Made by a program: the position numbers and the translations under genes. Below, piece by piece: positions 485 to 5,230 of a stretch of 5,230 nucleotides of DNA (within the stretch, counting starts at the first letter, position 1; every line of letters begins with the position of its first letter). This DNA comes from a virus. Taxonomy: Duplodnaviria > Heunggongvirae > Uroviricota > Caudoviricetes. The stretch is taken from the IMG/VR virus record IMGVR_UViG_2548877011_000013; one strand, 5' to 3'. Under the pieces are notes generated by a model. That model worked only from the letters and a program-made list of their open reading frames with translations, was not told the origin of the DNA and made no database searches.

Positions 485-505
485 ACATGAAAAGCAAAAT
501 CATCA

Positions 506-530
506 GGGAGCTACAGGCTCCTTTTTTATT
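506..530 (+). terminator. Candidate intrinsic terminator: 5-bp GC-rich stem GGAGC(507-511)/GCTCC(517-521), 5-nt loop, followed by TTTTTTATT
   Basis: Read directly from the sequence: gGGAGCtacagGCTCCttttttatt in the 98-nt intergenic gap between 484 and 583. The stem is short, so this would be a weak, probably antitermination-sensitive terminator. Confidence 0.35.
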
Positions 531-1572: not shown

Positions 1573-2328
1573 ATGATTCACTACCACGGTGGGCCTATTA
1601 CTCCTGATACGTGCGCAATGAGAGCATGGAAAGGGCGACATGCGTTTATCAGTTTTGCGCATTCAGGCCAGATCAATCTCGCGGCTGAATACTGTCAGTC
1701 GTTCGCGCTGGACAACGGTGCATTCACCGCCTGGAAAGCAGCTGGCAAAAACAAAATCGACTGGAGCGATTACTACGAGTTTGTTGCTCGCTGGAAGAAT
1801 CACCCAGGATTCGATTTTGCCATTATCCCGGATGTTATTGATGGCGGAGAGGAGGAAAATGATGCGCTTCTGAATGAGTGGCCTCACGGAAAACTAGCTG
1901 GCGTTCCAGTGTGGCACATGAATGAAAGTGACGAGCGATTTATTCATTTGTGCAATGAGTTTCCGCGAGTGGCTATCGGTAGTTGTGGCGACTATGACGT
2001 AAAGCGCCCAACTCTTGCGGTAGCCAGAATGAAAGACCTGATTCGTCACATTGTTGATGGGCATGGTCAGCCGGTTACGAAACTACATGGATTGCGCATG
2101 TTAAATCCGCTGATATTCACAAAATTACCCTTAGCCAGCGCAGATAGTACGAACGTCGCTCGAAACATCGGTATTGATAAAGCCTGGTCTGGGGCTTATG
2201 CACCTGCAAGTAAAGAGACACGCGCAGCATTAATGGTAGAACGGATTGAGGCACACAATAGCCCTGGTTCTCTTGCGTATTGTGAACAACGCGACCGCTT
2301 TGAAATGCAATTGCAACTAGCACTTTAA
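1573..2328 (+). CDS. TGT-fold protein, DpdA-like DNA-guanine transglycosylase candidate (7-deazaguanine DNA modification); 251 aa
   Basis: ATG at 1573, 2 nt after the Ea22 stop, with AGGAG at 1562-1566. The track ORF 1330..2328 is an out-of-frame upstream extension into Ea22. Motifs align in order and spacing with E. coli Tgt: LDNGAF (D47) to DSGGFQ, FAIIPDVID (D87) to IFDEC, VAIGSCG to AVGGL, and DSTNVARNIG to DCVMPTRNARNG. The C-terminal CxCxxC...H zinc module of tRNA TGTs is absent, as in phage DpdA. The ORF call is firm; the functional call is moderate. Confidence 0.5.
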   Translation: MIHYHGGPITPDTCAMRAWKGRHAFISFAHSGQINLAAEYCQSFALDNGAFTAWKAAGKNKIDWSDYYEFVARWKNHPGFDFAIIPDVIDGGEEENDALLNEWPHGKLAGVPVWHMNESDERFIHLCNEFPRVAIGSCGDYDVKRPTLAVARMKDLIRHIVDGHGQPVTKLHGLRMLNPLIFTKLPLASADSTNVARNIGIDKAWSGAYAPASKETRAALMVERIEAHNSPGSLAYCEQRDRFEMQLQLAL

Positions 2329-2338
2329 GGACTAACAA

Positions 2339-3169
2339 ATGACCACTATTACCAAAGAACGTATTGAATTGTTCATTAAAAATCCGCTTGAAAACGGGCT
2401 TACTCGTGGCGAACAAATGGAACTGGCACGAATTGCACTGGCATCACTGGAACGCGAACTGATTCGCCACGAGCATGCCAAATGGTCTGACTCCACATTT
2501 GGCTGCGTTGGCCCCATTGGTCCACTGAAACACCTCTCAAAAGAGGCTCTGGAAGCCGCAGCCGAACCAGACGATCTCAGCGAGTGGGCTGATATGCATT
2601 TCCTGTTGTGGGATGCACAGCGCCGTGCTGGCATCAGCGATGCTGAAATTACCGCTGCTATGGAAGATAAATTGAAGATCAACATGGAGCGCCAGTGGCC
2701 TGAACCAAAAGATGGTGAGCCTCGCTTGCACATTAAAGAACCCGGCAACTCTCCGGTAATTCCGGATGGTTTATCCACGGTATGCGCTGAGGCTTATCAG
2801 GTTGTAGGAGTTATGGCAGATGCGCTTGGTGTATTCGGTGATGCAGCAGTACAGAAAGTTCTGGATAACCTGTCACAGCAAAAACTTGTTCACAGAGATG
2901 TGCTGCCGTTCTCGCTTCCGGCAACTCCGGATGGTTGGATAAGCTGTAGTGAGCGAATGCCTGAAATGGGAGAGCGACAATGCTATGTGTTAGCAGCTGA
3001 CTTTAAAAACAACTACCCACCAAACATCCCCAACACTCAGGTCGGCGTATATGGCGACTGGTTTAATGATGGCAAGCCCACTTGGGATGACGGTGATGGC
3101 GAAGACCTGTATCTCAAAGAGGTAACCCACTGGATGCAGCTACCAGAACCGCCGCAGGAGGTGAAATGA
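2339..3169 (+). CDS. Two-domain phage protein: N-terminal MazG-like dATP/dGTP pyrophosphohydrolase domain (DUF550-type) plus C-terminal DUF551; 276 aa
   Basis: AAGGA 7 nt upstream of ATG 2339. The N-terminal ~120 aa is all-alpha with acidic clusters (KHLSKEALEAAAEPDDLSEWADMHFLLWDAQRRAGISDAEI) typical of the MazG/HisE-like fold. The C-terminus has DGWISCSERMPE ... VTHWMQLPEPP, which matches the DUF551 signature. Assignment from memory. Confidence 0.65.
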   Translation: MTTITKERIELFIKNPLENGLTRGEQMELARIALASLERELIRHEHAKWSDSTFGCVGPIGPLKHLSKEALEAAAEPDDLSEWADMHFLLWDAQRRAGISDAEITAAMEDKLKINMERQWPEPKDGEPRLHIKEPGNSPVIPDGLSTVCAEAYQVVGVMADALGVFGDAAVQKVLDNLSQQKLVHRDVLPFSLPATPDGWISCSERMPEMGERQCYVLAADFKNNYPPNIPNTQVGVYGDWFNDGKPTWDDGDGEDLYLKEVTHWMQLPEPPQEVK

Positions 3170-3252
3170 TGAATTGGCCTGAAGCATTCACCGCAGTTGG
3201 AGTTGCAATAGCGGTGGCATTTATTCTGTATTCGCTTTTCCGCTGGGGATAA
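3166..3252 (+). CDS. Micro-ORF encoding a 28-aa single-TM peptide (MMNWPEAFTAVGVAIAVAFILYSLFRWG)
   Basis: The ATG at 3166 overlaps the stop of the preceding gene (aaATGA), and the ORF ends 4 nt before the next gene. It has a 19-residue hydrophobic core flanked by Trp and Arg. The preceding GGAGG at 3157-3161 could serve as its Shine-Dalgarno sequence. Below the track cutoff. Confidence 0.35.
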   Translation: MMNWPEAFTAVGVAIAVAFILYSLFRWG

Positions 3253-3256
3253 AGGA

Positions 3257-3499
3257 ATGTTCGCTCTGATTCAACGTGGTCAGATATACACGGACAGAGC
3301 CGGATACCCTGTGGTGATTACTCGCAGTACTCAGCACTCAGTGTTCTTTCGACGCATGGACGGGCGCTCCGGACGGGTACGCATTGGTGAGTTCAACAAC
3401 CTGTTCGAACATATTGACCAACAGGAGTACCGCAAAATTCTGGCGGGCACTGAGCAGGAAATGCGCCTGAAAAAATTACGCGCAATGCAACGGAGGTGA
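3257..3499 (+). CDS. DUF4222-like small phage protein; 80 aa
   Basis: ORF with GGGGA 7 nt upstream of the ATG. The sequence MFALIQRGQIYTDRAGYPVVITR...FFRRMDG resembles the DUF4222 family common in enterobacterial prophage ea regions, from memory. Confidence 0.6.
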   Translation: MFALIQRGQIYTDRAGYPVVITRSTQHSVFFRRMDGRSGRVRIGEFNNLFEHIDQQEYRKILAGTEQEMRLKKLRAMQRR

Positions 3500-3655: not shown

Positions 3656-3910
3656 ATGCAGACAATCATCTATCAGATAACCCCCAGCAAATGGTGTACG
3701 GAGAGAGTCCTTATTGCATCAACAGGGCTAAAGCCCGGCACCATCGAGCGGGCCAGAAGAAAGTCATGGATGCAGGGAAAAGAATACCGCCATTACGCTG
3801 TAGAAGGTGATCCTGGGCATTACAGTGAATGCCTGTACAACATCGAAGAAATTATGCGATGGATCGAAAACCAGAAACAACCAGGTGCCAAAAATGCAAG
3901 TTCCGGTTAA
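3656..3910 (+). CDS. xis: Excisionase / recombination directionality factor (Rac XisR-like); 84 aa
   Basis: Immediately upstream of the integrase on the same strand, with GAGG 5 nt before the ATG. Small and basic, with the segment ITPSKWCTERVLIASTGLKPGTIERARRK resembling a winged-helix excisionase N-terminus. Function is inferred mainly from position and size. Confidence 0.6.
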   Translation: MQTIIYQITPSKWCTERVLIASTGLKPGTIERARRKSWMQGKEYRHYAVEGDPGHYSECLYNIEEIMRWIENQKQPGAKNASSG

Positions 3911-3943: not shown

Positions 3944-5230
3944 ATGAGTAACGCATCATACCCGACAGGCGTTGAAAACCATGGAGGATCACTCCGTATA
4001 TGGTTTCACTATAATGGCAAACGTGTCAGAGAAAACCTCGGTGTTCCTGACACAGCCAAAAACCGGAAGATCGCTGGTGAACTTCGCACTTCCGTTTGTT
4101 TTGCAATCAGAATGGGGAGTTTCGACTACGCCGCGCAGTTCCCTAATTCCCCTAACCTGAAACACTTTGGTCTGGGAAAAAGAGAGATAACCGTTAAGGC
4201 ACTTTCGGAAAAATGGTTGGACCTTAAGAAAATTGAGATTTGTGCGAATGCACTTAACCGTTACCAGTCAGTAATTAAAAACATGTTACCAATGTTAGGT
4301 GAAAAAAAACTGGTTTCATCCATAACAAAAGAGGATTTACTTTTCGTAAGGAGAGATTTGTTGACCGGTTACCAAAAGCTTTCTAATGGAAAGACTTCTT
4401 CCATAAAAGGGCGCTCAGTGGTCACGGTAAACTACTATATGACAACCATAGCTGGAATGTTTCAATTTGCAACAGATAATGGTTATACCTCAGGAAACCC
4501 ATTTAACGGTCTGGCTCCCTTAAAAAAGTCCAAGGTAAAACCAGATCCTCTCACCCGTGACGAATTTATTCGTTTTATTGAGGCTTGCCGTCATCAACAA
4601 ACAAAAAACCTGTGGATTCTCGCTGTATACACGGGTATTCGTCACGGGGAGTTGGTATCGCTGGCATGGGAAGATATAGACCTTAAAGCAAGGACTATAA
4701 CCATCCGTAGAAATTATACAAAACTTGGCGAATTCACTCCACCAAAAACCGATGCAGGCACCGGAAGGACAATTCATCTGGTTCAACCAGCTATTGATGC
4801 TCTTAAAAGCCAGGCGGAAATGACCATGCTTGGAAAGCAACATTCTGTAGAGGTGAAGCAGAGGGAATATGGGAGAACTGCTGTGCATAAATGCACTTTT
4901 GTTTTTAGTCCTCAGGTAACAAAACAGCAGCAGTTGTCCGGACCTCACTACAAGGTTGACTCCATCAGGGAGTCATGGACAAGTATCTTAAAACGCGCAG
5001 GTCTGAGACACAGAAAATCGTACCAATCCAGGCATACTTATGCATGCTGGTCACTTGCCGCAGGAGCTAATCCTAGTTTTATCGCAAGCCAGATGGGCCA
5101 CACAAACGCACAAATGGTATTCAATGTTTACGGAGCATGGATGAAAGACAACAATCACGAACAGATAGAACTCCTTAACAAAAGACTATCTGAAAGTGTC
5201 CCATGTATGCCCCATAAGAAAGCAGGGTAA
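3944..5230 (+). CDS. int: Tyrosine-type site-specific integrase, lambdoid (Rac IntR / HK620-like) with N-terminal arm-binding domain; 428 aa, complete
   Basis: GGGAGG 4 nt upstream of the ATG. N-terminal arm-type domain (LRIWFHYNGKRVRENLG...FDYAAQFP). Catalytic-core motifs GIRHGEL, LAWEDIDL, SRHTYACW, AGANPSFIASQMGH and NVYGAW, the last carrying the presumed catalytic Tyr. Stop TAA at the window end. Confidence 0.92.
   Translation: MSNASYPTGVENHGGSLRIWFHYNGKRVRENLGVPDTAKNRKIAGELRTSVCFAIRMGSFDYAAQFPNSPNLKHFGLGKREITVKALSEKWLDLKKIEICANALNRYQSVIKNMLPMLGEKKLVSSITKEDLLFVRRDLLTGYQKLSNGKTSSIKGRSVVTVNYYMTTIAGMFQFATDNGYTSGNPFNGLAPLKKSKVKPDPLTRDEFIRFIEACRHQQTKNLWILAVYTGIRHGELVSLAWEDIDLKARTITIRRNYTKLGEFTPPKTDAGTGRTIHLVQPAIDALKSQAEMTMLGKQHSVEVKQREYGRTAVHKCTFVFSPQVTKQQQLSGPHYKVDSIRESWTSILKRAGLRHRKSYQSRHTYACWSLAAGANPSFIASQMGHTNAQMVFNVYGAWMKDNNHEQIELLNKRLSESVPCMPHKKAG

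Follow-up and report, generated by a model that had tools for sequence, protein, structure and literature searches.

What benefit a temperate phage derives from a DpdA protein that comes without a synthesis pathway is a question that was raised in 2019, and no answer to it was found in the literature searched. The locus described here raises it again. The window (the whole stretch of DNA that was analyzed, 5230 bp) is the left end of a lambdoid prophage with every gene on the + strand, and, judged by its sequence relatives, the gene at 1573-2328 encodes a standalone phage DpdA-class protein of the tRNA-guanine transglycosylase (TGT) fold, a DNA paralogue of the tRNA enzyme. We put the probability that this protein is a functional DNA 7-deazaguanine insertase, that is, a singleton phage DpdA that sparsely modifies DNA with a base fed by the host, at about 0.65. 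An earlier reading made from the letters of the window (the sequence-only reading) had named the same class, and had proposed that the phage DNA is hypermodified to evade restriction. The features of the window are as follows.

1-192, + strand: DUF1382
To 484, + strand: ZapA-like ORF
583-804, + strand: DksA/TraR zinc finger
801-1571, + strand: Ead/Ea22-like gene of the exo-xis region, upstream of dpdA (PF13935, E 3.7e-36)
1562-1566, + strand: putative Shine-Dalgarno sequence AGGAG of dpdA, 6 nt 5' of the ATG, assigned from sequence
1573-2328, + strand: dpdA CDS, ATG at 1573, stop TAA at 2326-2328, 251 aa
2339-3169, + strand: dATP/dGTP pyrophosphohydrolase (PF04447) and DUF551 fusion, downstream of dpdA (Pfam)
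3257-3499, + strand: DUF4222
Between DUF4222 and the excisionase, + strand: 44-aa ORF
3656-3910, + strand: excisionase (PF06806, PF12167 and PF00589 for the excisionase and integrase pair)
3944-5230, + strand: tyrosine integrase, which with the excisionase marks the prophage end (Pfam)

For dpdA, the longest mechanical ORF in the program ORF list opens at TTG 1330; the MIHYHG start at 1573 is common to all homologues, which confirms the + strand ORF of 251 aa that had been delimited from the sequence alone. The stop codon of the ea22-like gene (TGA, 1569-1571) lies just 5' of the dpdA ATG, and this arrangement, together with the AGGAG box, suggests that dpdA is translationally coupled to the ea22-like gene and has no promoter of its own. 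A sequence scan found no promoter-like or terminator-like sites flanking dpdA, and we therefore rejected the possibility that it is a "moron" with its own promoter; the gene would instead be transcribed with the early-left operon following induction or infection. Given this position, the lysogen should not express it, and its expression should begin early once the prophage is induced or a cell is infected. A terminator-like hairpin with a T-run is also present at 505-523 (+), after the ZapA-like ORF and inside the leftward early operon; if it is a real terminator, the genes downstream of it, including dpdA, would need N-mediated antitermination for expression. The gene had been described as lying next to xis-int, and it is indeed upstream of these genes, but ~1.3 kb and four ORFs upstream of xis rather than beside it, directly after the ea22-like gene.

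An identical copy of dpdA is found in E. coli 2014C-3061, where the flanking proteins are 95-100% identical and the prophage is Stx1a-converting and integrated beside mlrA (yehV), with the integrase abutting mlrA/yehV. In this prophage, dpdA is downstream of N-cIII-kil-gam-bet-exo, which places it within the exo-xis section of the early leftward (pL) operon. [quoted passage not shown] The closest deposited phages to the window are BP-4795, VT1-Sakai, and YYZ-2008, with flanks 95-98% identical at 63-74% coverage. In BP-4795, a 63-aa ORF occupies the place of dpdA, and this ORF together with a DUF551-only protein replaces dpdA and the PF04447 gene, while Stx1a_EH2115 carries the target gene at 99.6% identity. 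In the fusion protein encoded downstream of dpdA, PF04447 corresponds to aa 42-137 and DUF551 to aa 199-273. RefSeq annotates its equivalent in 2014C-3061 (L001:20767-21597) as two pieces, a pseudogene fragment labelled "partial" and a shorter CDS; tblastn segments are 100% identical to the window protein along its whole length and the frame in the window is continuous, and the split is probably an annotation artefact. An unlisted 28-codon ORF (MMNWPEAFTAVGVAIAVAFILYSLFRWG) at 3166-3252 (+), which overlaps the stop codon of the fusion gene, looks, from its residues, like a single-pass hydrophobic peptide.

Sequence and profile comparisons support the assignment to the DpdA class. The target matches PHROG 887 far above chance (E 2.3e-103), and the experimentally validated DpdA of phage 9g matches the same PHROG at 2e-98. 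A direct BLASTP comparison of these two proteins gave an E of 3e-8, with LDNGAF paired to LDSGAF, KLHGLRM to KVHGFGI, and SADSTN to SCDSSS, and a family profile built from 46 diverse members aligned to a 9g-family profile over 237 columns with a probability of 99.5% (hhalign, E 4.3e-22). Among deposited phages, tblastn with the target protein returned 108 records, many of them labelled "queuine tRNA-ribosyltransferase," including MED16 (38% identity, E 1e-34), 7-11 (36%), HK106 (36%), and a Caulobacter phage whose homologue adjoins QueD. HMMER searches of Pfam, NCBIfam, PADLOC, and the PDB, with either the protein or family profiles, produced nothing significant; in particular, there was no match to the Pfam/NCBIfam TGT models (PF01702) at E<=0.1 and none to the PADLOC Dpd models, that for DpdA included. 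As the validated 9g DpdA fails these same searches, this negative says nothing about the function of the target. A merged family profile run against the PDB ranked the bacterial DpdA structure 7UI4 first, but at an E of 0.67, and hhalign could not align the family profile with the lone E. coli Tgt sequence, a one-sequence template being too weak to be informative. For the DpdA of MED16, a match to 2ASH at 99.2% probability has been reported.

The predicted structure agrees with this assignment. An AlphaFold2 model built from 146 sequences (pLDDT 89.1, pTM 0.87) has eight β/α units and is a (β/α)8 barrel of the TGT type. Against viral models, Foldseek gave 28 hits at E<=1e-3, of which the 10 with a functional name are all phage "queuine tRNA-ribosyltransferase" proteins, the rest being unnamed or uncharacterized. 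Of the profile and structure searches suggested by the sequence-only reading, the 9g-family profile match and the barrel agree with it, HMMER was null, and Foldseek against the PDB did not discriminate. As the best structural match, Cap10 ties with DpdA. The target may instead be a TGT-fold enzyme diverged toward another task; one candidate, in view of that tie, is Cap10-like binding or transfer of protein-linked 7-deazaguanine, possibly in counter-defence, and another is plain DNA glycosylase activity. Cap10 belongs to type IV CBASS, in an operon with a CD-NTase bearing an N-terminal Gly-rich tail and the QueC-like Cap9, whereas no CD-NTase, Cap9, or QueC-like gene is near dpdA and no such operon is present. 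Sequence similarity leads to the DNA-acting phage DpdAs rather than to Cap10, and two phages that have only DpdA (7-11 and MED16, discussed below) carry 7-deazaguanine in their DNA. Taken together, we regard a diverged role of this kind as improbable.

The motifs of the target follow the order of those in E. coli Tgt. LDNGAF (aa 46-51), IPDVID (85-90), VAIGSCG (133-139), and DSTNVARNIG (191-200) stand against DSGG at 89, FDEC at 142, GGL at 213, and FDCV at 263 with TRNARNG at 269 (the 263-275 block) in Tgt. The correspondences drawn in the sequence-only reading are reasonable. The motifs are present in the order that it gave, and the spacing is shorter in the target than in Tgt. In the bacterial DpdA of S. 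Montevideo (bDpdA, 7UI4), catalysis relies on Asp95 as general acid/base and Asp256 as nucleophile, the base being read by Asp130 and His181 with Leu236 stacked on it, and the substitutions D95A and D256A abolish guanine exchange (PMC10164549). The predicted active-site codons of the target are:

1711-1713, + strand: Asp47 (LDNGAF), predicted general acid/base, equivalent to bDpdA Asp95 and Tgt Asp89
1831-1833, + strand: Asp87 (IPDVID), predicted base-recognition Asp, putative equivalent of bDpdA Asp130 and Tgt Asp143
1915-1917, + strand: His115 (PVWHxxE), at the end of β5 in the model, invariant in every alignment, including the 9g family
2086-2094, + strand: His172-Gly173-Leu174 (KLHGLRM), on β7, with His172 invariant in all alignments
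2143-2145, + strand: Asp191 (SADSTN), predicted catalytic nucleophile, equivalent to bDpdA Asp256 and Tgt Asp264

An alignment of 146 homologues, the most distant at 45% identity, has 25 invariant columns, including D47, D87, H115, E118, G136, H172, and D191. With the 9g family, MED16, 7-11, and HK106 included as well, little or no variation is seen at D47, H115, G136, H172, D191, and S192. In the model, the conserved residues fall at or just past the C-terminal ends of β3, β4, β5, β6, β7, and β8. Asp47, at the end of β3, is invariant in three alignments and conserved to at least 90% in a fourth, and it pairs with the LDSGAF of 9g. Asp191, at the end of β8, is invariant in all alignments and pairs with the SCDSSS of 9g; in the merged-profile alignment (E 0.67), it falls on the TSIDST Asp of 7ui4_A, chain residue 276, which is Asp256 if the tag is assumed to be 20 residues long, the paper describing a 22-residue tag that includes the linker. 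The profile alignment to 7ui4_A, with the same E of 0.67, pairs "kvHglrm" with "QVHLLGI" and so places Leu174 on the base-stacking Leu236 of bDpdA. His115 is probably the counterpart of bDpdA His181, going by strand order and topology in the model and not by superposition. Asp87 is invariant in the clade alignment of the 146 homologues and conserved to at least 90% in another alignment; the Asp in VLDGIG of 9g is paired with it by hhalign but with Asp90 by BLAST and MAFFT, which makes the exact equivalence of the base-recognition Asp (D87 or D90) ambiguous, with an acidic residue at this position under either alignment. With D47, H115, H172, and D191 all conserved, the target keeps the full predicted catalytic set, subject to the D87/D90 ambiguity, and the conservation of catalytic aspartates anticipated from the sequence holds across homologues for D47 and D191 and within the clade for D87. 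Together with PHROG 887 and the 99.5% hhalign match to 9g, these aspartates bear out the placement in the phage DpdA class.

Three further residues, His3 and His5 at the end of β1 (MIHYHG, 1579-1587 in the window) and His23 in β2 (GRHA, 1639-1641), are invariant in the singleton clade and lacking in the validated 9g/CAjan-type DpdA1 proteins. This conservation pattern could point to a metal site or to another substrate.

PHROG and RefSeq names for this family would make the target a queuine/preQ1 tRNA-ribosyltransferase that remodels host or phage tRNA. Tgt shares with the target the barrel and the order of the catalytic motifs, but it is 124 residues longer (375 versus 251 aa), has a zinc subdomain and an N-terminal lid, and shows no similarity by HMMER, there being no match to a Pfam TGT model even at E 0.1. 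The model of the target opens directly with barrel strand β1, with no N-terminal hairpin, and the protein ends 60 residues past the predicted nucleophile. Neither a CxCxxC zinc motif nor conserved Cys residues occur in the 192 (146 + 46) family members, and the motif is also missing from 14/14 9g-family members examined, so zinc is not required for phage DpdA activity. The absence of the zinc region and the hairpin had been pointed out previously and is correct, but the loss of zinc is not special to this protein, being common to validated DpdA1. As the zinc subdomain and lid aid the holding of tRNA in TGTs, their absence makes a tRNA role unlikely; the sequence neighbours of the target are moreover phage DpdAs proven on DNA, and the annotation label is an inherited one. 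We consider a tRNA enzyme very improbable, and the substrate is likely to be DNA. The pI of the target (6.3) lies among those of validated DpdA1 proteins (5.1-6.6), which are all acidic, and is uninformative for DNA binding.

The target is not the first of its kind. In the classification of phages with DpdA by Hutinet et al. (2019; PMC6884629), group 3, "DpdA only," comprises 76 phages, among which Supplementary Data 1 gives BTP1 (SIU02687), SPN3UB (YP_007011024), SfI, HK106, SEN1, 7-11, and Vibrio phage Athena1. The target shares 92.8% identity with the proteins of the Salmonella phages BTP1 and SPN3UB, ~68% with those of SfI and Athena1, and 36-38% with those of HK106 and SEN1. As it has no linked folE/queD/queE/queC (with or without gat-queC and queF), it belongs to group 3 and not to groups 1-2. 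The DpdA-only proteins of BTP1, SPN3UB, SfI, HK106, and SEN1 resemble it in having the same length, a place in the early-left operon, and no pathway genes. In BTP1, dpdA follows an ea22-like gene and precedes xis-int, with a PF04447 gene after it, and in HK106 it likewise precedes xis-int, so that the BTP1 orthologue and the HK106 homologue (36% identity) share one slot just upstream of xis-int. Nothing material differs between the target and the BTP1 type, other than that it resides in an E. coli Stx1a prophage at mlrA/yehV with its flanks reshuffled. The family assignment, the standalone nature of the gene, and the idea that it relies on preQ0 from the host had all been published (Hutinet et al., 2019), and the target, as a near-identical member of a published class, is already known; it reveals no new kind of system and, with its orthologues listed in 2019, is not a new lead.

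More distant systems differ more clearly. The Queuovirinae DpdA1 proteins (9g, CAjan) share with the target PHROG 887, D47, H115, G136, H172, D191, and the lack of a zinc motif, but are only 16-22% identical to it and are longer (300-318 aa), carrying a further segment at the N terminus and a helical extension at the C terminus; their genes lie beside folE/queD/queE/(gat-)queC, and they modify 25-32% of G, whereas the target has no such genes. The bacterial DpdA of S. Montevideo is 14% identical and ~410 aa long, has a CXCX2CX22H zinc site as well as the insertions Ins1-3 and Ins8, needs the ParB-like ATPase DpdB, and belongs to an 11-gene dpd cluster; the target has neither this zinc site nor these insertions, and the partner genes are absent from the window and the prophage. 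The DpdA proteins of 7-11 (Salmonella) and MED16 (Pantoea) are in the target's own family (35-38% identity) and share its dependence on host 7-deazaguanine, although these phages are virulent, unlike the lambdoid prophage. The 7-11 protein (gp032, L104:2486-3190) as annotated starts at about residue 17 of the target and is without the β1 strand (MxHxHG) of other family members; tblastn to 7-11 starts at query residue 19, while the related SE131 and SeKF_80 match from residue 2. Going by this comparison, the 7-11 DpdA, the one assayed Salmonella singleton, may be N-terminally truncated, and if so, the reading of its very low dADG level is affected.

Published modification levels bear directly on what the target could do. 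DpdA of 9g, alone in E. coli, gave dPreQ0 at 0.03-0.3% of G; 7-11 DNA has 50 dADG per 10^6 nt (0.02% of G); MED16 has dADG at 0.13% of G, with "no noticeable effect" on the restriction enzymes tested, its DNA being cut by the tested enzymes with guanine-containing sites; and mycobacteriophage Orion, in a host without the pathway, has no modified guanine. High levels (25-32% of G, or complete replacement) are found only in phages with their own pathway, and no assay of any lambdoid or P22-like singleton DpdA was found in the literature searched. An active DpdA that gives substantial protection from restriction enzymes, as the sequence-only reading had proposed, would be in keeping with CAjan, 9g, and iggy, whose DNA is shielded by high-level dPreQ0 or dG+, and with the accessory nature of the exo-xis region and the presence in the prophage of Lar and a Dam-like methyltransferase (anti-restriction/modification genes). 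However, this shielding comes with a preQ0 pathway of the phage's own, and with DpdA-only relatives at 0.02-0.13% of G and MED16 DNA unprotected, bulk hypermodification that blocks restriction conflicts with the data. We accordingly consider substantial protection unlikely.

At such levels, with modification in relatives close to background, it must also be asked whether dpdA does nothing in the mosaic exo-xis region, as inert cargo or as a gene in decay. To survey its neighbours, 80 related IMG/VR loci were compared by clustering three ORFs on each side of dpdA, and no conserved neighbour was found; the commonest were mosaic DUF551 proteins, DksA-like proteins, RusA, and methyltransferases. 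The genes around dpdA are freely shuffled. By contrast, the ORF itself is full length, the 25 invariant columns of the 146 homologues include the predicted catalytic residues, homologues form 813 clusters (representatives at 50% identity, E<=1e-3), and the gene, which is present in 204/5426 complete E. coli genomes, is intact in 201/204. That dpdA is mere ballast is therefore hardly credible.

The same survey disposed of two candidate partners. The PF04447 gene had looked attractive, as BTP1 has the same pair and BP-4795 is without both, but it follows dpdA in a minority of the 80 loci, even where dpdA is 100% identical, and it was rejected; only the first 35 codons of the 2339-3169 gene travel with dpdA. 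Residues 145-243 of the Ea22-like protein (801-1571) match the PADLOC model PDLC02890, "DpdH," which is 127 positions long (E 5.3e-35). This C-terminal module was also rejected as a partner, as it adjoins dpdA in only 2/80 loci, and the model itself may carry the wrong label or include contaminating prophage sequence. In one locus, a 444-aa ParB-HTH protein (PF17762; L043:1500-2831) is directly upstream of and abuts the dpdA homologue (L043:2831-3583), and ParB-HTH proteins are found 0.2-0.6 kb upstream in three others (L035, L059, and L079). ParB-HTH proteins of the L043 type do not match the PADLOC DpdB model, and the protein is absent from the target window and prophage; as a partner, it is a lead only.

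We therefore return to the singleton DpdA as a functional, host-fed insertase. The target would be a DNA-guanine transglycosylase produced early in the lytic cycle, with a trimmed (β/α)8 barrel and no zinc. By analogy with the two-Asp double displacement of TGT and DpdA, Asp191 would attack C1' of a flipped-out deoxyguanosine, with Asp47 as general acid/base, and a free 7-deazaguanine base would take the place of the departing guanine. As folE, queD, queE, and queC are absent from the phage, the base must come from the host pathway, in agreement with the dependence on host-made 7-deazaguanine that had been predicted from the window. In E. coli, the queuosine pathway would supply preQ0, or possibly the QueC intermediate ADG. 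Host supply would then be limiting and modification sparse rather than bulk, and we would expect a level of ~0.01-0.3% of G, as dPreQ0 or dADG, at sites that are probably motif-restricted as in CAjan and iggy.

A different account of the sparse marks is that the DpdA-only enzymes of temperate phages form a function-shifted clade, with His3, His5, and His23 at the barrel mouth and a different host metabolite as substrate. We hold this to be doubtful, although a shifted clade that uses ADG from QueC would explain why dADG, and not dPreQ0, is present in 7-11 and MED16. Were it true, motif-specific marks might serve for escape from one particular defence, as a self-mark, or as a replication or packaging signal. 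That such a clade may act on protein-linked deazaguanine, as Cap10 does, is a more remote option.

Whatever the marks are for, naming the target a singleton DpdA is a useful annotation correction, as the RefSeq label of this gene in the 204 complete E. coli genomes is "hypothetical protein." The gene is present in ~4% of complete E. coli genomes, including in the Stx-converting prophages of clinical STEC. As the prophage is inducible and resides in E. coli, for which host que mutants are available, it would be a convenient genetic system for defining the role of singleton DpdA proteins in temperate phages.
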